The notes beneath the pieces were generated by a model. The model saw only the letters and a list, made by a program, of their open reading frames with translations. It was not told where the DNA came from and ran no database searches. From assembly GCA_041440805.1 (NCBI GenBank), contig JASDVF010000050.1, positions 77,012 through 141,011 of the forward strand: a stretch of 64,000 nucleotides of DNA. Reading direction: 5' to 3'. This DNA is from Myxococcota bacterium. Lineage in GTDB: Bacteria > Myxococcota_A > UBA9160 > UBA4427. Below are positions 6,402 through 33,918 of this stretch, piece by piece; position 1 is the stretch's first letter; the number at the start of each line of letters is the position of its first letter. Made by a program: the position numbers and the translations under genes.

Positions 6402-7763
6402 TCAGTGGAACTCGATGCTGTCGGGAAGCGCCGATCCTGTAGCTTGATCGGCCAGAGGCTCGATCATGAAATAGGGGCGTTCAAAGACACTCCGGTCGCC
6501 ATTAGGCGCGAAGGTCGACGAGAAGGAACGAAAGACGAGGCCCTCAACGATCCCCTGGGCCAGATGCGGCGAGTAGCTGTTATTGAAAAGAATGTCGCCA
6601 GGCATGCTCTCATGCTGTTCGCCATCGACTCCGTAGATTACAGGGCCGCTTAACACATAGTAGAATTCGGGAATCACGTGACTATGCTCGACATAGGTCG
6701 ACCGCGCGCCCCACGCAGATTCAGAGAAGTTAAAATCCCAACGCCCATCGGGCCGGCTTGCTCGGAAGATCGCCTTGTGACGCGCGATCTGAATCATCTG
6801 CTCCGCGACTTCCAAGAGCGAGCCAAGATCATCCGAGAAAAAGAATCCGCCCTCCTTTAGAGTCTCGGCCGAAAGCCAAGAAATTTTGCTGTCGTGCCCA
6901 AATACGGAAACGCCGGGATAGAGCGGCTCATCCACATTGAAGGCCGCTTTCGCTGCGCGAAGACCGAAGGCCGCATCAGCGTATACCGGAACCGCTGCCG
7001 AAGGCGTGGAGTTCACAGCAGCCTCGACCGGACCATAGGCCTCGTCCACTCCGCCCCAGAAAAGATAGCCGTCTTCGAATTTCGCCTGCTCGGGCTGAAC
7101 ATGCTGATTCGCGCCTGTTAGGTAGTAGCCGGCATCAATATACGACTGGTCGCCTCCCGGAGCCCAACGGATCCACAACAAACGAAGAGGTTCCTCCGCC
7201 GAGGCTTCCAAACTTCGCACGACATAAGGCTCGAGCTTCACTGTAGATCCCGTCGTCACGCGAGCGTTTTCGTTCCCGACACGAATCTCTCCGCGTCCCG
7301 AGATCACGATATACGCACCCGGCGCACCATCGGCATGCCCCGGTAGGACGGCCTCTGGTCCAAGCACCAGCTGACTGATTTTGAGATCGGGATGATCGAA
7401 GGCCAGCCGCAAACGCATCGCGCCTTTAAGCTGCTCGACACGGTCCGGTGTCGACTCTCGAAGCCCGTCCCAATCGATTGGGAACAGATTTTCCAGATCG
7501 CCCCATGGCGTTCCCGTCGTTTGATGACGCGCGCCGTAGCGCGGAAGGGGCCGCGGCGAATCAGGATCAGCCATGTCGCGTTCGCGGCGCTCCCTGAATT
7601 CCGCGTACTTGTAGCCGTAGGGGTCATTTGGGTCATCGATCGCTGTGTAGATCGCGGGGTCCACTTCATCGGCCGCGACCCCCGCCGACATCTCAGCCTC
7701 GTCGCCAGGCTGACCGAGCATCGCGCAGCCTCCGAGAAGAAACAGAAGCGATCCGGAAGCCAT
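6402..7763 (-). CDS. Bicupin-domain lipoprotein, unknown substrate
   Basis: Lipobox LLFLLGGC directly after ATG 7763; the listed start 7859 is an alternative. Two cupin-like barrels (GHADGAPGAYIVISGRGEIRV; HSHVIPEFYYVLSGPVIYGVDGE). Confidence 0.6.
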   Translation of the reverse strand: MASGSLLFLLGGCAMLGQPGDEAEMSAGVAADEVDPAIYTAIDDPNDPYGYKYAEFRERRERDMADPDSPRPLPRYGARHQTTGTPWGDLENLFPIDWDGLRESTPDRVEQLKGAMRLRLAFDHPDLKISQLVLGPEAVLPGHADGAPGAYIVISGRGEIRVGNENARVTTGSTVKLEPYVVRSLEASAEEPLRLLWIRWAPGGDQSYIDAGYYLTGANQHVQPEQAKFEDGYLFWGGVDEAYGPVEAAVNSTPSAAVPVYADAAFGLRAAKAAFNVDEPLYPGVSVFGHDSKISWLSAETLKEGGFFFSDDLGSLLEVAEQMIQIARHKAIFRASRPDGRWDFNFSESAWGARSTYVEHSHVIPEFYYVLSGPVIYGVDGEQHESMPGDILFNNSYSPHLAQGIVEGLVFRSFSSTFAPNGDRSVFERPYFMIEPLADQATGSALPDSIEFH

Positions 7764-7942
7764 AAAGTTCGGAAATCGGCTCGTAAACGAAGTTAATGAG
7801 ATCACTAGGGCCCCGGCACCGCGGGATGCGGTCTTCGCGTCGCATCGTCGCACGAGCATCCTCTTATGTCATGCCACGACTCCCAATCCGGTACCGCTGG
7901 TCAGCTTCGCCATTTTGTGGAAAGGTCATTGATGGAGGGCCT

Positions 7943-8944
7943 ATGTCATCGACCGCACTCGCTGCACCCAGCCATAGCTACCGCAGCGAAGAAGATCTCC
8001 AAGAGCAGTACCACGCACAGGGTTGGACCGACGGTCTCCCGATCGTCGCCCCTACGCCGGATCGCGTCGAAGCCTTCCTCGCGGAAGCGGGCCTGGCCCC
8101 AGATCTCCTCCTGGGTGAAGTCCCAACCCGCGAAGTTCGGGTCACGGCTGAACACGCCGCCATCAATGCAGTGATGGCGGGTTGCCGCCCCGAATATTTC
8201 CCCGTCGTCGTGGCCGCCCTTCGCGCGCACCTCCACGAGAAGGGCAACTGCCATAGCACGACCGGCACGCTATCCGGCGCAGTACAGACCGTGTTAGTCA
8301 ATGGCCCCATTAGAACAAGAATTGGCATCGAATGCGGTGCTGGATGCATGGGCCCGGGCTTCCGCGCCAACGCCACAATCGGACGCGCACTCCGCCTCGT
8401 GATTCGCAACGTGTGTCGCGCCATCCCCGGTGTACTGGACCGCGCAAGTTTCTCGAGTCCCCATCGCTTCAGCTTCTGTTTTGGTGAGAACGAAGAAGAG
8501 AGCAACTGGACGCCTCTCCACGTCGAACGTGGCTATCAGCTTGCTCAGAGCACAGTCACTGTTCACTCCGTCATGACCGTGACTTCCACGATCGACTTCA
8601 CCTCGCGCACCCCGGAAGCCCTGCTCGATTCGATGCTCCACACTCTTAGACAAAACGGAATTGCAGGGGACGATTTCGTCGGCGACGACGCCAACGTGAT
8701 GCTCGTCGTCGGCCCCGAACATCGCCGCTATTTCGACCGCGCCGGTTGGTCCAAGGAAGACATGCGCGACTACCTCTTCCCCCGGTTCGCAGAAGACCCG
8801 GGTCCGACTGGACGAATCGTCGGGCTCCCGCGCAAGGACGGAATTCTGATTGCTGCAGCCGGCGGCGACGGCATGGCTCAGACTTGGGTGTTGTTGCCGC
8901 ATCTCGCTGTCGCCATAACAGAAGCGATCGACGTACCGAACTAA
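7943..8944 (+). CDS. Uncharacterised conserved protein, partner of UGSC selenoprotein (copy 1)
   Basis: 333 codons from ATG 7943, with GGAGG 5-9 nt upstream. Paralog of 31294-32415, sharing the blocks GW(T/G)DGLP(I/L)V.PT..RVEAFL, A(I/V)NAVMAGCRP, GPG(F/C)RANA..GRALRLV and GPEH. No family name recognised. Confidence 0.7.
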   Translation: MSSTALAAPSHSYRSEEDLQEQYHAQGWTDGLPIVAPTPDRVEAFLAEAGLAPDLLLGEVPTREVRVTAEHAAINAVMAGCRPEYFPVVVAALRAHLHEKGNCHSTTGTLSGAVQTVLVNGPIRTRIGIECGAGCMGPGFRANATIGRALRLVIRNVCRAIPGVLDRASFSSPHRFSFCFGENEEESNWTPLHVERGYQLAQSTVTVHSVMTVTSTIDFTSRTPEALLDSMLHTLRQNGIAGDDFVGDDANVMLVVGPEHRRYFDRAGWSKEDMRDYLFPRFAEDPGPTGRIVGLPRKDGILIAAAGGDGMAQTWVLLPHLAVAITEAIDVPN

Positions 8945-9005
8945 TACGCACATCAGCCGCCGCCGGAAAGCCAATATTCCCGTCAACTTCATGAAGGAAT
9001 TAGCC

Positions 9006-9554
9006 ATGGACGAAAAAACACTGATCGCCCTCGATCCTACGAGCGGCCCCCTTGAGCGCAAAGACGATCGGGCGCTTCCCGCCCGCGTCGCTTCGCTTTC
9101 GGGGCATGTACTCGGCCTCGTGGCCAATGGACTCGGTGAATCCAAGTCCTTCCTGGACGCCGTGTACGGGGAGCTCACGAGCGCAGACGACACCCTCGCC
9201 GCGGTGCGTGTCCTAAAGCCGAGTGTCTCCGTCGCGCCGGAGCGACCGGATTGGGCTCGGCTCACCTCGGAGACCTCGCTGGCGATTGCCGGCTTCGGGG
9301 GTTGAGGCAGCTGCTCTGCGCGCAGTTTGCGCGACGCGATCGAGCTCGAGTGGGCGGGAATTCCGACCGCCGCCATCATCCACAAAGCCGTCGAGGGCTC
9401 TGCCCAAGCGATGGCTCGACTATCGGGAGTGCCCGATTTCGAGTTCATCCTGATCGACTACCCGGCCATCCCGACGGCCATCTGGAATCAAGATGAAATT
9501 CGCGATCTGGCACGAGAGGTCGCTCCCAAAGTGCGTGCCCGTCTGACGAGCTGA
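9006..9554 (+). CDS. UGSC-motif selenoprotein (copy 1); TGA 9303-9305 read as selenocysteine (residue 100 of 182)
   Basis: Listed ORFs 8991-9305 and 9327-9554 are in the same frame, separated only by TGA plus 7 sense codons. Read-through gives ..GFGG-U-GSCSARSLRD... The paralog at 32484-33011 has TGA at the homologous column in the same U-G-S-C context. A SECIS-like hairpin lies downstream. AAGGA is 6 nt upstream of ATG 9006. Confidence 0.8.
9319..9333 (+). promoter_or_regulatory. SECIS-like recoding hairpin for UGA 9303-9305
   Basis: CGCGCA-GUU-UGCGCG: a 5-6 bp GC-rich stem with G-U in the apical loop, starting 13 nt after the UGA. Confidence 0.6.
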
Positions 9555-9612: not shown

Positions 9613-9858
9613 ATGTCAGAAGCCGTGCAACAAGTTGTCGAGCAATTCAACGAGATCGTTAAACCCGATGGCGGACAGGTTCGTCTCTGCGAATTCGACA
9701 GCGGCGTGCTGCGCGTGAGCTATCGACCTGGCGTGAACGAAGAATGCGCGGAGTGCGTAATGGAGCCGGAAGCACTCGGCGCCATGATGCATGACATGCT
9801 CAAAGGACTGAGCGACGACGTATTGCGCGTCGAAGTCGAAACTGAAAAGGAATCATGA
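9613..9858 (+). CDS. NifU/Nfu-like small CxxC protein
   Basis: 81 aa. The pattern ..VKPDGGQVRL..FDSGVLRVSY....CAEC......LGAMMHDML resembles the NifU C-terminal (Nfu) domain with one CxxC pair. AGGAAGAG precedes the ATG. Confidence 0.65.
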   Translation: MSEAVQQVVEQFNEIVKPDGGQVRLCEFDSGVLRVSYRPGVNEECAECVMEPEALGAMMHDMLKGLSDDVLRVEVETEKES

Positions 9859-26853: not shown

Positions 26854-28191
26854 ATGAGCCTGGCCGATGTCGGTGGTACCCGGGAAGATCTTCTCGGAAC
26901 CGCAATTAGCTCAGTCGGAAATTCACAGGGAACCCCCTTTCGAATTCCCGCGGACCGCTATCGCAGCGAAGCCTTCGCCGAACGCGAACACGAGCATGTA
27001 TGGCAGAAAGCGTGGGTCGTCGCGTGCAGCATCGACCATGTCGCTGCGCCCGGCGATCTCTATGAAGTGCGGATCGGCCGCTATTCAGTGCTCGTCGTGC
27101 GCGGGCGCGACGGAGAGCTGCGTGCGTTCCAAAACGCCTGTAAACACCGCGGAATAGCGCTCTGCAGCGGATCGGCTCAGGGACTTAAACATCTCCGATG
27201 TCCCTATCACGGCTGGATGTACGATTTACGGGGCCAGCTCACGGGGATGCCCTCACATAAGGGCCTTGGCAAGAACGTCGACAAATCCGAGCTCGGCCTC
27301 ACCCCCGTCCAAGTCGACACCTGGGGACCGATCGTCTTCGTGAACCTCGATCCCGAAGCGATGCCCCTCTCCGAATTTCTAGAAGTGGTTCCGGAAGATG
27401 CGAAGGCTCTGCAAGTCGACGACTTTCGATGTTATGCAAAGATCCGAACTGAGATGCCGGCCAATTGGAAACTCGTCGCCGACAGTTTCTCTGAGACCTA
27501 CCACGTCCAGACCTTGCATCGCGAAATGCTCGGATCGATTGATGACATCAACTCGGGCCAGGAAATATGGGGTCGTACCGGCGTCTCCCGACAGCTCTAC
27601 GGTGTTGCCAGCCCGCGTCTCATTAAGAGTGACAATCAACTGATCTGGGACTCGTTCATAGTCACCCAGGGTGAGCGAATGGGGATTACGGAAAGTTGCC
27701 CGGCGCCTATGCCCGCCGAAGGCGAGACCATGGTCGACGTGATCGGCGAACGAATTCGCGCCTACCAAAAGGATGAGAAGGGAATCGATCTCTCGGGCTT
27801 CAGCAACCATGAGATGTTGCTCCTTCATCAATACAACATCTTCCCGAACCTCACGGTGCTCATCTCCGCAGACCTACTCCAAGTGTTATCCGCACGCCCC
27901 GGCGCGACCGCTGACACTTCGGAGTTGATCGGGATGAGTTTCGAGAGAGAGATCAAAGATGTTCCAAGGGCGAGACCCTTCGATCTCGATATGCCTGCGG
28001 ATCAAGCTGGCTTTGGCTTCGTACTCAACCAGGACGTCGACATCCTTAAAAATGCACAGCGCGGCGTAAATCAGCCGGGCCTCACACATATCAACTTGTC
28101 ATGCGAAGAAGCGCGTGTCGTGAATACCCACAGAAATCTCGAGCACTACCTAGGAATCGAGCCCAGCGAAATAACTGGCGGACCCGCCTAA
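26854..28191 (+). CDS. Rieske [2Fe-2S] aromatic-ring-hydroxylating oxygenase, alpha subunit
   Basis: Rieske motif CKHRGIALC...CPYHGW. The C-terminal catalytic domain has ETYHVQTLH. Confidence 0.85.
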   Translation: MSLADVGGTREDLLGTAISSVGNSQGTPFRIPADRYRSEAFAEREHEHVWQKAWVVACSIDHVAAPGDLYEVRIGRYSVLVVRGRDGELRAFQNACKHRGIALCSGSAQGLKHLRCPYHGWMYDLRGQLTGMPSHKGLGKNVDKSELGLTPVQVDTWGPIVFVNLDPEAMPLSEFLEVVPEDAKALQVDDFRCYAKIRTEMPANWKLVADSFSETYHVQTLHREMLGSIDDINSGQEIWGRTGVSRQLYGVASPRLIKSDNQLIWDSFIVTQGERMGITESCPAPMPAEGETMVDVIGERIRAYQKDEKGIDLSGFSNHEMLLLHQYNIFPNLTVLISADLLQVLSARPGATADTSELIGMSFEREIKDVPRARPFDLDMPADQAGFGFVLNQDVDILKNAQRGVNQPGLTHINLSCEEARVVNTHRNLEHYLGIEPSEITGGPA

Positions 28192-28216
28192 CATGGTCGA
28201 GTGAGAGGGAAACGGA

Positions 28217-29143
28217 ATGATCGAGATAGAGCCCCTCACGAACGGCATCGCCGCTCGGGTACATGGCATTGACCTGGCCTCGGAGCTAGCGGGCAGCCTC
28301 GAGAAGCAAGCCGGCGCACAGATCGAGGCTGCGTGGCAACAACATCCGATCCTCGTCTTCGGGGATCAAAATGCACTCACCACGGAAGCCCAGGTCGCGT
28401 TCGTCGAGGGTTTTGCGAAGGTGATCGAAGAGCGCCTCCCCGGGGACCAGCATTCCTTCGTGTCGAATCAAGATGGCCACGGTCTCGATAACATGACCGA
28501 GGGCTACCGCGAGGGCCCTCTCACGCCGCATATGGACTACACCTACACGCCCTTTCCGGCAGACGTGATTTCGCTCTTCGCCGTCGACGTCCCCGAGAAC
28601 GGAACGGCGACGCGTTTCTATGACAACGCCCGGCCTCTCAAAGTAATGCCGCGGGCACTCAGGGCTCAGATCGAGGCCTACACGATCTTTTGCGCCCATG
28701 ATCTGGCCGCCATGAAACCCGACGCTCGCCCGGCCTTCGAAGGCCGAACGAATCCGGCGGCGCCAACGCAAAGCCACATCTGGCCGATGGTCCGCTCACA
28801 CCCGAAGCGCCGCGACTACGAGACCCTTGTGTGCACGCTGCAACAGACAGAACGCATCATGGAACTCTCGGACGAAGAGCGCGGCGATCCGAAAAGTCGG
28901 GCGATGCTCACGAGAATCTTCGACGAATATTTGTATGTCCCTGAGAACGAATACGTCCACCAATGGGAAGTGGGCGACTTGGTTGTATGGGACAACCTCG
29001 GCGTCCAGCACGCGCGCGACGCATGTCCTCCGTCCGAAGGCGCACGAAATTTCAGGCGCGTCGCGGGCTGCGATGCCGGAAATGCAATCGAAGATACGGT
29101 TGCATTTCTCGGCCTCGCAGCCGCGTCCGACGCGTTCTCTTAG
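28217..29143 (+). CDS. TauD/TfdA-family Fe(II)/2-oxoglutarate dioxygenase
   Basis: TauD-like layout with HMDYTY (HxD) and a distal His region (VVWDNLGVQHAR). Confidence 0.8.
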   Translation: MIEIEPLTNGIAARVHGIDLASELAGSLEKQAGAQIEAAWQQHPILVFGDQNALTTEAQVAFVEGFAKVIEERLPGDQHSFVSNQDGHGLDNMTEGYREGPLTPHMDYTYTPFPADVISLFAVDVPENGTATRFYDNARPLKVMPRALRAQIEAYTIFCAHDLAAMKPDARPAFEGRTNPAAPTQSHIWPMVRSHPKRRDYETLVCTLQQTERIMELSDEERGDPKSRAMLTRIFDEYLYVPENEYVHQWEVGDLVVWDNLGVQHARDACPPSEGARNFRRVAGCDAGNAIEDTVAFLGLAAASDAFS

Positions 29144-29197
29144 CAGTACAGGGGCGGTACGAGCGTAGTGCTCGGCAACCGCGTACCTGTTAGGCTG

Positions 29198-29644
29198 CTA
29201 TTCGACAGGCTCGAGGACCACGACGGGGATCACCCGATCCCCCGCGCTCACCTTGTAAGCCGCGTAGGGCGGATAGATTTCTTGGAGTTCTGCCCAAAGT
29301 CGTTCGCGCTCGTCGCCCTCGGCGATTCGCGCACGAGCAGAGACGGGCTTCGCCCCAACCATCAATTCGCAAGCGGGATTCGCTTCGAGGTTTAGGAACC
29401 AGATCGGGTGGTTCGGCATGCCGCCCTTCGAGGCGATGATCACGTAATTGCCGTCGATCGCTTTGTAGATCAACGGAATCGACCGCGGCTCGCCACTCTT
29501 CCGTCCGGTTGTGGTGATCAGAAGCGTGGGCAGCATTCCCTCGCCCCCGGCCTCCGCCGAATCCCACATATGCGCCTTTTCCGGGTCTGTGCGATAGAGC
29601 TCGATGTGCTTTGCGATCCAAGGTACTTCGGCGAAAGTGGCCAT
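29198..29644 (-). CDS. Nitroreductase-family deazaflavin (F420)-dependent oxidoreductase (DUF385)
   Basis: LLITTTGRKSGEPRSIPLIY..GNYVIIASKGGMPNHPIWFLNLEANP is the family signature as I remember it. Confidence 0.8.
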   Translation of the reverse strand: MATFAEVPWIAKHIELYRTDPEKAHMWDSAEAGGEGMLPTLLITTTGRKSGEPRSIPLIYKAIDGNYVIIASKGGMPNHPIWFLNLEANPACELMVGAKPVSARARIAEGDERERLWAELQEIYPPYAAYKVSAGDRVIPVVVLEPVE

Positions 29645-29962
29645 TTTGTCGGGGTCCTTTTGGGATTGATGAGAGGGTTAGCTGGGCGCCTAGGTTCGCC
29701 GGCCCAGAGCGATCGCGCCAGCCTTGAGAATCGCTTCGCGAAGGGCTCCGAAGGGCGCATTTTCCCGTCCTGCGAATGACGACAATCGGAGCTGACTAAG
29801 TGCTCTGAATTTGACACAATCGGCTCAGCCGATTGCGGTTCAGCCCCGGCAGCCCCATCCCAAATGCCGGCGCGTCGGGTGCATCCGAGAGCACCCACCA
29901 TCATTCGAAGGAACTCTTCGAACTCAACCGCAAGCGCATACTTACGAAACGAAAGGCATTTC

Positions 29963-31168
29963 ATGAGCGATCCGATCATCGTCATTTCCTCCGACACCCA
30001 CGCCGGCAACTCCGTCGAGGGCTACCGCGAATACCTCGACACAAAACATCAGGCGCTCTTCGACGAATGGCGCGGTTCGTACAAGAACCCGCAGAAGAAG
30101 CACATAGGATCCAAGAAGCACAAGAACTGGGACGATGCCGAGCGCATGGGCGACATGCAGACCGAAGGCGTCGTCGGCGAGATCGTCTTCCCGAATACGG
30201 TTCCGCCCTTCTTCCGCTCGAGCGTGCTCATCTGCGGCAACCCCCGCCCCGAAGACTATTTGATGCGCCTCGAAGGTATTCGCGCGCATAACAGATGGCT
30301 CAGCGAATGGTGCGGCGAATTCCCAGCCCAGCGCGCCGGCATCGGCCTCGTCTATCTGAACGACATCGACGAAGCGATTAAAGACATCGAGTGGATCGCC
30401 AAGAACAACTTGCGCGGCGGTGTCCTGCTCCCGCACGTTCCCGACGACTGCACGGGCTACATCAAGCCGCTCTATCACCCCGACTACGACCCTATGTGGG
30501 CACTTCTCGAAGAGACGGGCCTCGTCGTGAATCACCACGGCGGCACGGGCTCCCCAGACTACGGACGCCTCCCCGTCTCCCTTCCGATTCGACTGATCGA
30601 AACCGGCTTCTTCTCAACCCGAAGCTATAGCCAGCTACTTCTGTCCGGCGTCTTCCACCGCTTCCCGAAGCTCAAGTACATCATCACCGAGTCCGGATGC
30701 GCCTGGGTACCGGAAACCCTGCAGCGCCTCGACATGGCCTGGAAGCGCATCTCTTCAGGCGCGGTCGGCGAGTTCCAGTTCGCGGAGGGTGTCACGACGC
30801 CCGAGCCGCCGAGCTTCTACGCAAAGCAGAACTGCTACTACGGTGCGAGTTCGGCCTCCCCGCCGGAGCTCAAGGATCGCGACGTGATCGGCACAGAGCG
30901 TATTCTCTGGGGCAGCGATTATCCCCACTACGAAGGCACCTACCCCGATACCCGCTTGGCGTTGCGGCACACGTTCAACACGTGCGGCGAGGACGATACG
31001 CGGGCGATGCTCGGGCTGAATGCCGCCAAGCTCTACGATTTCGATCTCGAAGCCCTCAAGCCAATCTCGGATAAGTGCGGACCGACTTGGGACGAACTGA
31101 GCGTGCCGCTCGCGCCCGAAGAGTTTCCCACGGACACCCACACGAACGCGTTCCGCACACTCGACTGA
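29963..31168 (+). CDS. Amidohydrolase-2 (ACMSD-like metal-dependent hydrolase/decarboxylase)
   Basis: VISSDTHAG metal motif near the N-terminus and ILWGSDYPHYEG near the C-terminus. Start at ATG 29963. Confidence 0.85.
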   Translation: MSDPIIVISSDTHAGNSVEGYREYLDTKHQALFDEWRGSYKNPQKKHIGSKKHKNWDDAERMGDMQTEGVVGEIVFPNTVPPFFRSSVLICGNPRPEDYLMRLEGIRAHNRWLSEWCGEFPAQRAGIGLVYLNDIDEAIKDIEWIAKNNLRGGVLLPHVPDDCTGYIKPLYHPDYDPMWALLEETGLVVNHHGGTGSPDYGRLPVSLPIRLIETGFFSTRSYSQLLLSGVFHRFPKLKYIITESGCAWVPETLQRLDMAWKRISSGAVGEFQFAEGVTTPEPPSFYAKQNCYYGASSASPPELKDRDVIGTERILWGSDYPHYEGTYPDTRLALRHTFNTCGEDDTRAMLGLNAAKLYDFDLEALKPISDKCGPTWDELSVPLAPEEFPTDTHTNAFRTLD

Positions 31169-31293: not shown

Positions 31294-32415
31294 ATGGCCG
31301 ATTCGGGCGAAATCGAATGTGAAGACGATGTTTGCGCCCTTCCGGGTGCGACCCTCGAATCCTTCGAATCGGCGCGGGTCTCGCCGGACGTTAAAATTCC
31401 CGAAGGTGATTTCGAGGCGTGGATGGATCTCGCCGACACACGCGGCTGGGGGGACGGCCTTCCGCTCGTGCCTCCGACCGAGGCTCGGGTCGAAGCCTTC
31501 CTCGAAAAGCTGCCCCGTCAGATTGATCCTGATGCAGTCGTCGCAGTCCTGCCGCCCCGCGGCGGACTCGTCACGCGACGACTCCTCGCAGTCAACGCCG
31601 TAATGGCTGGCTGTCGCCCCAACATGCTCCCAGTTCTCACGACCGCCGTCCGCGGACTCGCCTTCCCGGAAATCAATCTTCGCGGCATCAACGCGACGAC
31701 TCATCCGGTGGCTCCCCTCATCCTGGTTCATGGCGCCGCGACGGACGAGCTCGGCTTCAATGCCGGGCTAGGCGCCTTCGGCCCCGGCTGTCGCGCGAAT
31801 GCCTCCGTCGGCCGAGCTCTTAGACTCGTCCTCATGAACATCGCGGGCGCGCGCCCAGGAGCCGGCGATGCCGCAACTCAAGGACAGCCCTCGAAATACA
31901 GCTACTGCGCCGCCGAGAATTGCGCCGAGAGCCCCTGGGAAAGCTATCCGGAAAGCCTCGGCCTTCGAGCCCCGAGCGCTGTCACCGTCGCTTGCGGTGA
32001 GAATCCGCATAACGTCCAGGATCACGATGTTCGCTCGCCAATTCATACGCTCGAGCAAATCGCGAGCACGATGCTGACCCTGGGCTCGAATAACGCTCCG
32101 GTCTCGAGTGCCGAATGGTTCGTTTTTCTCGGCCCCGAGCACGCCGAGGCAATCGCAGCCGACGGCTTTTCACGAAAAGACGTGCAGGATTTCCTCTTCG
32201 AAAATGCGCGGCTTCCCATGTCGCGATTCCGGCGCGCCTTCGAAGTCACTCAATACGCTGAATGGGAAGACGCGCTCCCGGATGACGGTATGAAGCCGAT
32301 CATGCGCGATCGCGACCTCATCAAAGTGATGGTCGTAGGCGGCGCTGGAAAACACTCTTGCGTAGTGCCGAGCTGGGGCATGACCGAAAGCGCCACACTG
32401 CCCCTAGAGCCCTAA
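31294..32415 (+). CDS. Uncharacterised conserved protein, partner of UGSC selenoprotein (copy 2)
   Basis: 373 codons from ATG 31294, with AAGGAG 6 nt upstream. Paralog of 7943-8944 (GWGDGLPLVPPTEARVEAFL, AVNAVMAGCRP, GPGCRANASVGRALRLV, GPEHA). Confidence 0.7.
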   Translation: MADSGEIECEDDVCALPGATLESFESARVSPDVKIPEGDFEAWMDLADTRGWGDGLPLVPPTEARVEAFLEKLPRQIDPDAVVAVLPPRGGLVTRRLLAVNAVMAGCRPNMLPVLTTAVRGLAFPEINLRGINATTHPVAPLILVHGAATDELGFNAGLGAFGPGCRANASVGRALRLVLMNIAGARPGAGDAATQGQPSKYSYCAAENCAESPWESYPESLGLRAPSAVTVACGENPHNVQDHDVRSPIHTLEQIASTMLTLGSNNAPVSSAEWFVFLGPEHAEAIAADGFSRKDVQDFLFENARLPMSRFRRAFEVTQYAEWEDALPDDGMKPIMRDRDLIKVMVVGGAGKHSCVVPSWGMTESATLPLEP

Positions 32416-32483: not shown

Positions 32484-33011
32484 ATGTCGTCGACCTTGAT
32501 CTACTCTCCCGAGGGACATACGGACGCACTCCTCGAACGCACACCGCGAACCTCTATCAAAAAGCTCGCAGGTCTTCGCATTGGCGTCCTCGACAACGGC
32601 AAGGCAGGCGCGGATCACCTGCTAGGCAGGATGGGCGCAGAGCTCGCAAAGAAGACCGGTGGAATTTACGTTGGCTGCTTCCGCAAGCAGACCGCCGCCA
32701 CGCCCTGTGAGACCGAGCTGATCGATCGCCTCGCCAAGGAAGTCGAGGTCGTCCTCACGGGTACCGCTGATTGAGGGAGCTGCACGTCGTGGAGTCTCCA
32801 CGACACGAAATCCCTTGAAGCCCGAGGCGTCGCCACGGTCGTCGTCGCGAGCGAAGCCTTTCGCGATCTCGCAGATCAGATGGCGAGGGAGCTACTCTTT
32901 CCTGATGCGCGCCGAATCATCGTCCCGCACCCGATCGGCGGCACACCCGGCGCAACCCTGGATGCATGGGCAGACGCGGCACTGGACGCGATCCTCGAAC
33001 AGCTCCGTTAG
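32484..33011 (+). CDS. UGSC-motif selenoprotein (copy 2); TGA 32772-32774 read as selenocysteine (residue 97 of 175)
   Basis: ORF 32358-32774 ends ..LTGTAD at the TGA. The same frame stays open to TAG 33009-33011 and encodes GSCTSWSLHDTKSLEARGVATVVVASEAF...ILEQLR, which is homologous to the C-terminal half of copy 1. That half is absent from the ORF track because it has no Met. A SECIS-like hairpin starts 11 nt after the UGA. Confidence 0.8.
32786..32804 (+). promoter_or_regulatory. SECIS-like recoding hairpin for UGA 32772-32774
   Basis: GUCGUGG-AGUCU-CCACGAC: a perfect 7-bp stem and 5-nt loop containing G-U, with an 11-nt spacer after the UGA. Confidence 0.65.
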
Positions 33012-33210: not shown

Positions 33211-33918
33211 CTAGCGTCGGCGAACCGTGGCCAGGCCAGCGAGACCGAGGCCCATCAGCAGGGCGGTGCCCGGCTCCGGGACGACCGTCAGCGCGAAGGT
33301 GTCGCCGGTTGAGGCGATCTCGTTTCCCTGGAAGTCCAGAGCGAGAACCGAGAACTGCAGGTTCGCGACGGCGCCTTGGTCCGCATACGCGAACACGTTT
33401 TGGAGCGTGATCTGGAAGTGGATGTCGCCACCCGTGACGAGGCTGCCACCGATACCGTAGTCGGTCAGGCCATCGCCATCCGCACCGGAAGGACTAATCC
33501 CGTCGAACATGTTGACGGTGTACGCCTGCGGGTTGAGGTGGTTGATGGAGAAGCGTTCAACCGCATTCGTACCATTGTTATTGTCGATCGAGCCAGAGAT
33601 GATAGTTCCGTCGCTAAGGGGATCAATACCGAGAGACTCTGCGACAACGTTGCTGGCCCCCAGTTGAAGGCCAAAATCGCGGACGCCGGTCGCGTCCGCC
33701 AGGTCCATACCCGTCAAGTCGGCCGAGAGGCCGAAGATCTGGGGCTCCGTTCCGTCGAAGGTCATGCGAAGGTCGAACGTGACCGTGTCGCCGACGGCAA
33801 GAGTGCCACCAGCACCGCCACCGGTTGCCTGGACGACTTCAATGCCTAGAGCGGATGCCATTGACGGTATGGCCAAGAGGGTCGCGGCCAGCGCGAGTGC
33901 CTTGGTGAATCGAATCAT
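33211..33918 (-). CDS. PEP-CTERM sorting-domain secreted protein
   Basis: Signal peptide MIRFTKALALAATLLAIPSMASA and C-terminal VPEPGTALLMGLGLAGLATVRRR (PEP motif, TM helix, Arg cluster). Confidence 0.85.
   Translation of the reverse strand: MIRFTKALALAATLLAIPSMASALGIEVVQATGGGAGGTLAVGDTVTFDLRMTFDGTEPQIFGLSADLTGMDLADATGVRDFGLQLGASNVVAESLGIDPLSDGTIISGSIDNNNGTNAVERFSINHLNPQAYTVNMFDGISPSGADGDGLTDYGIGGSLVTGGDIHFQITLQNVFAYADQGAVANLQFSVLALDFQGNEIASTGDTFALTVVPEPGTALLMGLGLAGLATVRRR

Follow-up and report, generated by a model that had tools for sequence, protein, structure and literature searches.

In the Prd and Grd systems, the gene for a selenocysteine (Sec)-containing subunit adjoins that for a larger, substrate-binding subunit, as in PrdA/PrdB and GrdE/GrdB (or GrdF or GrdH). 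PrdA and GrdE are pyruvoyl proproteins that are matured by cleavage, and grd clusters encode within the operon a thioredoxin system, by which the grd system is recycled. Prd requires a small co-encoded maturation factor, PrdH (PMC11229817). A further family of prokaryotic selenoproteins, UGSC (Zhang & Gladyshev 2007/2008), has since 2007-2008 been counted with the most abundant ones of ocean metagenomes, and a 2026 review still gives its function as unknown (PMC2398784, PMC13188914), as does the literature on this abundant selenoprotein at large (PMC1976440, PMC2398784, PMC9312934, PMC13188914). The 2008 Global Ocean Sampling (GOS) paper placed UGSC among the most abundant marine selenoproteins, with 255 Sec and 21 Cys forms, and suggested a thioredoxin fold (PMC2398784); the papers on the family treat it as a stand-alone protein, 'likely Trx-like'. 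Here we examine two UGSC genes, each following the gene for a larger partner (hereafter the large protein), in 64,000 nucleotides of a Myxococcota bacterium (GenBank assembly GCA_041440805.1, contig JASDVF010000050.1, positions 77,012 to 141,011), a stretch that we call the window.

We find that the pairing of UGSC with the large protein is obligate across bacteria and haloarchaea. As in Prd and Grd, a gene for a Sec subunit adjoins one for a larger subunit, and we consider it reasonably probable that each module encodes the two subunits of a single Sec-dependent, thioredoxin-linked redox enzyme. The genes of the two modules in the window are the following:

7943..8944, + strand: large1, the 333-aa partner protein of clade 1 (translation confirmed)
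9006..9554, + strand: UGSC1, a 182-aa UGSC-family selenoprotein with Sec as codon 100
31294..32415, + strand: large2, the 373-aa partner protein of clade 2 (translation confirmed)
32484..33011, + strand: UGSC2, a 175-aa UGSC-family selenoprotein with Sec as codon 97

The partnership is evident from both directions. A profile-derived scan of one genome per species returned at least 596 relatives of the large protein, and the set of loci anchored on the large gene comprised the best 80 loci together with two metagenome loci (n = 82). A UGSC gene lies in the flank of 70 of these 82 loci, on the same strand in all 70, downstream of the large gene in 59 and upstream in 11. The gap between the two genes is mostly 0-400 nt (range -4 to ~400 nt), and a 4-nt overlap (ATGA) of the large stop and the UGSC start is frequent (L018, L034, L036, L037, L039, L056, L057, and others), which implies translational coupling of the two products; in the window copies, by contrast, 61 and 68 nt separate the two genes. 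The hosts span Chloroflexota/Dehalococcoidia, Acidimicrobiia, Binatia, Rokubacteria/Methylomirabilota, Myxococcota, Nitrospirales, and Vicinamibacterales as well as Alpha-, Beta-, Gamma-, and Deltaproteobacteria; three of the loci in which no UGSC gene was detected belong to Poribacteria. For the reciprocal test, the DNA pattern G-D-TGA-G-S-C-[ST]...D was run over metagenome contigs and retrieved 120 loci, every one a true UGSC gene. A same-strand large gene adjoins UGSC in 89 of the 92 assessable loci (97%), the other 28 contigs being too short. One of the three exceptions (L159, metagenome contig Ga0126369_10041637) has a large-family fragment on the opposite strand, ~200 nt away.

Natural fusions join the same two domains. 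Proteins with UGSC followed by the large domain are common (~525-580 aa); no fewer than 45 Cys forms are full-length, and NCBI names one of these 'UGSC family (seleno)protein'. The opposite order occurs in P0256, P0282, and P0287, gene calls that end at the Sec codon, and two single open reading frames in the UGSC-then-large order (L060:2367-3959 and L078:5389-6993) contain an in-frame TGA (Sec). Fusions of the latter type would be split or shortened by gene callers, and many database 'large' proteins of 410-450 aa start just past the fusion TGA (e.g., P0253 and P0257). The module has also multiplied locally, as UGSC-large-UGSC in L048, as large-UGSC-large in Halalkalicoccus jeotgali (L210), and as two modules within ~5 kb in L059 and L060.

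The two families have diversified together. A mirror-tree comparison over 66 pairs gave r = 0.85 between the two distance matrices, where 2000 permutations reached at most 0.14. When the nearest large protein was taken for each pair, its partner ranked among the three closest UGSC proteins in 54 of the 66 cases. An AlphaFold2 (AF2) model of the natural fusion P0407, built from a 70-sequence alignment, reached a predicted local distance difference test score (pLDDT) of 92.2 and a predicted template modeling score (pTM) of 0.91, which would be unreachable unless the large and UGSC domains were confidently packed in the model. Reciprocal synteny, the shared strand, the 4-nt overlaps, the fusions in both orders, and the mirror-tree correlation thus strongly support that the two products work together, as an initial annotation of this DNA had proposed from the retained gene order in the window. 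That the two proteins form a physical complex is supported by the fusions and the high pTM of the model. The initial annotation was also correct that no function had been described for the pairing, but the association had not gone wholly unnoticed, as a single sentence in the 2008 GOS paper reports a fusion of UGSC to a conserved 'Unknown_1' domain (PMC2398784). 'Unknown_1' is probably the large protein, an identity that could not be confirmed; a motif search of part of the text of that paper's supplement found no UGSC-family or large-domain sequence.

Within the window, the large gene precedes the UGSC gene in each module, all four genes being on the + strand, and their open reading frames and spacers (61 nt in module 1 and 68 nt in module 2) are as first described. 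Neither has a + strand terminator-like site between the large and UGSC genes, and purine-rich sequences resembling ribosome-binding sites precede the starts of UGSC1 and UGSC2; both features fit co-transcription of the two genes. The large proteins share 36% identity (273 aligned residues, E 1e-47) and the UGSC proteins 27% (126 aligned residues, E 2e-12), a similarity far beyond chance and, as judged by eye before, at well under half of positions. Because each pair is closer to pairs from other phyla (65% and 61% identity to Dehalococcoidia and Acidimicrobiales loci) than to its own paralog, the modules are not a recent repeat. Orthologs of both modules share contigs in relatives (e.g., GY910_07805 and GY910_07950, ~29 genes apart), so the two-module arrangement is old, in agreement with an ancient duplication, one of the two origins first considered.

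The in-frame UGA codons of the small genes are decoded as Sec. UGSC1 has a single in-frame TGA at 9303-9305, in the context AIAGFGG-U-GSCSARS, and UGSC2 a single one at 32772-32774, in the context LTGTAD-U-GSCTSWS. Each is followed by a hairpin resembling a Sec insertion sequence (SECIS):

9303..9340, + strand: UGA(Sec) and SECIS-like hairpin of UGSC1, with core stem 9319-9324/9328-9333 and a GUU loop
32772..32804, + strand: UGA(Sec) and SECIS-like hairpin of UGSC2, with an 8-bp stem 32786-32793/32797-32804

The hairpin begins ~13 nt past the UGA, has a small G/U-containing loop, and occupies the same place in 66 homologous loci, across which compensatory stem changes are many (GCGCGCA/UGCGCG, GCCCGCA/UGCGGG, and UCGUGCA/UGCACGA). 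The UGSC2 hairpin is more stable than shuffled sequence (z -3.3); that of UGSC1 has the conserved form, yet is no more stable than its shuffles (z +0.46). A scan of the window with Rfam returned no SECIS family or other RNA at threshold, and no tRNA-Sec or sel genes were found in the window. Among 70 partner genes from other genomes, 67 have TGA and 3 Cys at the U position, and the 67 TGA partners read UGSC (55), UGGC (8), or UGAC (4). The Sec forms thus strongly outnumber the Cys forms, as they do in Prd and Grd.

Sequence profiles place both small proteins of the window in the UGSC family. UGSC1 and UGSC2 match PF24696 ('UGSC family') with 132.7 bits (E 2e-38) and 141.3 bits (E 4e-41), against a cut-off of 25, and with NF041046, UGSC2 scores 127.1 bits, above the 125-bit cut-off, and UGSC1 87.5 bits, below it. 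Residues P11, U/C100, G101, C103, D110, and E115 (UGSC1 numbering) are invariant; the resolving Cys of the U-x-x-C motif is so in the sampled separate-gene partners (A3 and 66 pairs). In 58% of partners, a third Cys extends the motif to UxxCxxC; neither window protein has it. In the AF2 fusion model, the UGSC domain is an alpha/beta/alpha sandwich in which the Sec/Cys directly precedes a helix. A Foldseek search with this model matched generic flavodoxin-/Rossmann-like domains (lumazine synthase, PTS IIB, and B12-binding domains), all with E>1e-3; against the PDB, it returned no thioredoxin-fold protein and no match at E<=1e-3, and a profile search of the PDB with UGSC yielded chance-level matches only. 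Where the literature describes a stand-alone, thioredoxin-like protein, UGSC is here half of an obligate pair, with a predicted fold whose matches are flavodoxin-like.

Apart from their own family, the only models matched repeatedly by UGSC sequences are those of selenoprotein B. Five of 23 UGSC proteins match them, the best hits being GrdB (TIGR01917, E 8e-6), GrdF (E 6e-5), and TIGR01918 (E 2e-4), with weaker matches to PrdB (E 0.012) and GrdH (E 0.013); UGSC2 itself shows weak PrdB and GrdH matches around the Sec. All of these matches fall in one register, covering the Sec region and the following 60-80 residues of UGSC. The register of the hits sets the UGSC U near position 347 of 431 in GrdB and near 148 of 238 in PrdB. 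The Sec of GrdB presumably lies at about position 350. The Sec of Clostridioides difficile PrdB is U151 (PMC11229817). These profile matches indicate that UGSC is a remote homolog of the C-terminal Sec region of GrdB, GrdF, GrdH, and PrdB, over 80-90 residues only, and not a member of the selenoprotein B family; by analogy, it plausibly works like selenoprotein B. At about 175-185 aa, the UGSC proteins are also much smaller than PrdB (about 240 aa) and GrdB (about 435 aa).

The large protein belongs to an extensive family that has never been described. Large1 has 7958 homologs, all annotated 'hypothetical', and large2 has 4163; a profile search with the family returned 7188 representatives of 50% identity clusters at E<=1e-3 and 2023 at E<=1e-30. 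Matches to Pfam and NCBIfam (48 members, E<=1) and to PDB sequences were absent. The AF2 model of large1 is confident (pLDDT 87.5, pTM 0.89), and Foldseek found nothing in the PDB at E<=1e-3, the best match having E 8e-3 and a TM score of about 0.2. The fold matches to Toblerone-fold hydrolases, class I fumarase, and RidA are weak, and we do not take them as homology.

Residue conservation was counted over 158 domains from 150 family representatives, an unbiased sample. Invariant or nearly so, besides the Cys of the AVMAGC motif (Cys81), are D30, G31, P33, G80, G121, G137, N143, G147, R148, E182, and W189. Cys81 itself is Cys in 151 of the 158 domains (96%), Ala in 6, and Val in 1, and is therefore not strictly conserved, contrary to the initial claim for the Cys of AVMAGCRP; Cys179 is conserved in 85%. 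In the large1 model, Cys81 lies in a short helix-helix loop capping helix 83-96. Such helix-capping loops are typical sites for a reactive thiolate. One protein that starts with 'MAGC' (P0247) suggested that some large proteins might be selenoproteins at Cys81; this start proved to be a gene call from an internal Met. The conserved loops 101-110 and 161-170 have a pLDDT of 58-59 in isolated large1 and 75-88 in the fusion model, which weakly hints that they may lie near the UGSC domain, given that the alignments behind the two models differ. Tandem large-large fusions exist, suggesting that the large protein acts as a dimer.

Several loci link the pair to thioredoxin systems, as in the grd operons. 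Arthrobacter sp. ERGS1:01 has an operon trxB-trxA-large-UGSC with a 4-nt overlap between trxA and the large gene, Roseovarius sp. THAF8 has large-UGSC-trxB, and Variovorax sp. SRS16 has trxB-TctC-SDR-large-UGSC. In P0267, the large domain is fused to a low-Mr thioredoxin reductase (TrxR)-like domain with a CAVC motif, and in P0302 to a domain resembling the catalytic chain of ferredoxin:thioredoxin reductase (FTR; FeThRed_B), each being a single representative among 150. Pyr_redox_2 proteins rank in the top three of the immediate same-strand neighbors. These fusions to reductase-like domains recall AhpC/AhpF, the TrxR fusions, and FTR, from which they differ in that the large domain is unrelated to peroxiredoxins or any known thioredoxin target family. 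The kinship of UGSC with GrdB and PrdB, the trxB/trxA operons, and the TrxR-like and FTR-like fusions provide indirect support for a redox role of the pair, as the initial annotation had guessed.

Clade 1 adds a third gene to the module, placed directly 3' of UGSC1:

9613..9858, + strand: NifU-like CxxC protein of 81 aa (PF01106, E 1.5e-5), a clade-1-specific third gene

The predicted protein carries the motif E-C-A-x-C-V-M and scores just below the gathering cut-off of PF01106; the stop codon of its gene and the start of an SDR gene (9855) overlap. A NifU-like gene also lies 3' of UGSC in L001, L084, and, weakly, L006, and in Arthrobacter sp. ERGS1:01, the NifU-like domain is fused to the UGSC C-terminus; it is absent from module 2 and most clades. 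Prd likewise co-encodes a small third protein, PrdH. That of UGSC clade 1 is, however, NifU-like and not PrdH-like, and a comparison with PrdH in PDB sequences found no relation.

The wider surroundings of the pair vary greatly. A Pfam scan of 146 immediate neighbors found 106 families and no universal third gene, the leading families being amidohydrolase-2, thiolase, Pyr_redox_2, alpha/beta hydrolase, CoA-transferase III, and luciferase-like monooxygenase. Module 1 is flanked on one side by - strand genes that encode a bicupin, a sulfotransferase, and an MFS transporter, and on the other by the NifU-like gene, the SDR gene, and an esterase gene, all on the + strand. The bicupin (485 aa, 6402-7859, - strand), divergent from module 1, is lipoprotein-like at its N-terminus (LLGGC) and weakly matches cupins of the dimethylsulfoniopropionate-lyase type. 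Upstream of module 2 (26854-31168, + strand) are genes for the alpha subunit of a Rieske ring-hydroxylating oxygenase, a TauD-family dioxygenase, and an amidohydrolase-2, and downstream is a PEP-CTERM gene (33211-33918, - strand). The order TauD...amidohydrolase-2, large2, UGSC2, PEP-CTERM is kept in a relative (L083, 73% identity), where no Rieske gene is seen. Other clades adjoin a CoA ligase and thiolase, or TRAP or TctC transporters with CoA-transferase III; Cys-form fusions adjoin PrpD, aconitase, and a citrate symporter, and others aconitase X/DUF126. Overall, the pair behaves as a module inserted into many organic-acid catabolic operons, and this variety and the large number of paralogs suggest that substrates differ from clade to clade. 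On an Arthrobacter plasmid (L208) and on a plasmid of the haloarchaeon Natrinema (L209), the pair has a 'phosphosulfolactate synthase' (ComA-like) gene within 3 kb. Along with the TauD-family and sulfotransferase genes near the window modules, the ComA-like genes may hint at organosulfonate metabolism.

In the mechanism that we favor, UGSC, a miniature relative of the Sec part of selenoprotein B, would present the Sec at the helix N-terminus of a flavodoxin-like alpha/beta domain. The large subunit would supply the substrate pocket, with the invariant D30, N143, R148, E182, and W189 and the helix-capping Cys81. The selenolate would attack the substrate bound there, and the cycle would close with an Se-S bond in which the sulfur belongs to Cys81 or to the Cys of U-x-x-C. 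This bond would be re-reduced by a thioredoxin-type system, in clade 1 possibly via the NifU-like CxxC protein. The substrates are probably small organic acids and, as the two window copies sit in different catabolic operons, probably differ between them.

A number of observations weigh against such an enzyme. The large partner shows no detectable similarity to the pyruvoyl proproteins PrdA and GrdE (48 members, E<=1). The matches to the selenoprotein B models (TIGR01917, TIGR01918, TIGR04483, and NF040794/5) score far below the cut-offs (25 vs 602 bits for the best, and 20.4 vs 65.45 for TIGR01918), and the Pfam GRDB model was unmatched at E<=1 by 23 UGSC members. Few loci have a reductase alongside; Pyr_redox_2, although among the three commonest immediate same-strand neighbors, accounts for 6 of 146, and a TrxR-like gene was found nearby by tblastn in only 2 of 88 loci. 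As the association is not universal, a housekeeping thioredoxin would have to serve most genomes, including this one. Two Cys81-to-Ala variants of the large protein (P0154 and P0024) retain an intact adjacent U-G-S-C selenoprotein, and some fusions have a UGSC domain with no redox residue at the U position, which is Met in a Vibrio europaeus plasmid fusion (L214:4362-6047) and Ile in P0266. The large domain of both fusions retains Cys81 and Cys179, which shows that it can function without a redox-active UGSC. These two fusions adjoin aconitase X/DUF126 and enolase and may represent a non-redox offshoot of the family. Further differences from the known systems are that UGSC systems have no GrdA, GrdC, or GrdD genes and that they occur mainly in aerobic heterotrophs and in haloarchaea rather than in amino-acid fermenters.

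The persistence of Cys81 in fusions whose UGSC motif is fully degenerate fits an alternative in which the large protein is itself an enzyme with Cys81 as its catalytic residue, and UGSC is only a dedicated redoxin that re-reduces the sulfenate or disulfide formed there. This reading, close to the 'carrier' idea of the initial annotation, agrees with the 96% conservation of Cys81 at a helix N-cap and with trxB and trxA upstream of the Arthrobacter pair. It would also account for the loss of the second UGSC-motif Cys (giving CGTS) in 33 of 45 Cys-form fusions, in all of which Cys81 and Cys179 are kept, as expected of an inter-domain disulfide. We nevertheless regard it as unlikely. A Sec in 67 of 70 separate-gene partners would be unusual for an electron shuttle and is typical of a catalytic Sec, the 255 Sec and 21 Cys forms of the GOS data point the same way (PMC2398784), PrdB offers a precedent for a catalytic Sec in that its U151C variant is inactive (PMC11229817), and the Cys81-to-Ala variants keep their Sec partner. 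Those variants bear equally on the selenenylsulfide between the Sec and the AVMAGC Cys that had been suggested for the pair. The high conservation of Cys81, its modeled position at a helix N-cap, and its retention in the 33 Cys-form fusions with CGTS speak for such a bond; because Cys81 is 96% conserved and not strict, and Ala variants keep the Sec partner, the idea is weakened. UGSC also has a resolving Cys of its own in U-x-x-C, and Cys81 persists in some fusions that have lost the U/C residue.

The genes beside the Cys-form fusions (PrpD, aconitase, the citrate symporter, aconitase X/DUF126, and enolase) and the recurrence of TRAP/TctC carboxylate transporters and CoA-transferases nearby would suit a non-redox isomerase, racemase, or hydratase acting on di- or tricarboxylates, with the Sec and Cys as acid/base or covalent catalysts. 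Weak fold matches to class I fumarase, cis-aconitate decarboxylase, and Toblerone-fold hydrolases lean the same way, but they are not significant (E >= 8e-3, TM about 0.2). U-x-x-C is a classic redox motif, and a non-redox enzyme would hardly account for the trxB/trxA operons or for the TrxR and FTR fusions, so that we find this possibility distinctly improbable. Least credible, in our judgment, is a role of the Sec and Cys as ligands in the handling or sensing of a metal, metalloid, or Fe-S cluster, with the NifU-like protein as donor. The NifU-like CxxC gene or domain of clade 1, fused to UGSC in Arthrobacter, and the UxxCxxC motif in 58% of partners are compatible with it; the third Cys is, however, missing from both window proteins and 42% of the family, the NifU-like gene is confined to one clade, and no metal transporters or regulators recur among the 146 immediate neighbors.

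The newly recognized partner family, the kinship to selenoprotein B, and the trxB/trxA operons turn an orphan selenoprotein into a testable two-subunit enzyme. The Cys-form operons of Arthrobacter, Roseovarius, Variovorax, and haloarchaea, from cultured and tractable strains, permit expression without the Sec machinery. On the practical side, gene callers split or truncate UGSC genes at the UGA, and annotation pipelines call the partner a 'hypothetical protein'. A wider and rather doubtful proposal, to which we nonetheless give some weight, is that UGSC and its partner are the founding example of a large, hitherto overlooked class of Sec-dependent, thioredoxin-driven reductases outside Stickland fermentation. 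Its hosts would be aerobic marine and soil bacteria, with the Cys form in haloarchaea, and a new fold would be expected for its substrate subunit. In the most far-reaching form of the proposal, by analogy with PrdA and GrdE, the large subunit may be cleaved at Gly80-Cys81 to generate a pyruvoyl-type electrophile; bearing on this, G80 is invariant and C81 96% conserved, 7 of 158 domains have no Cys, and the site falls in the predicted helix-helix loop. If such a class exists, it would explain the abundance of UGSC among ocean selenoproteins, and reductive C-X bond cleavage would join the catabolism of SAR202, Myxococcota, Binatia, and related groups.

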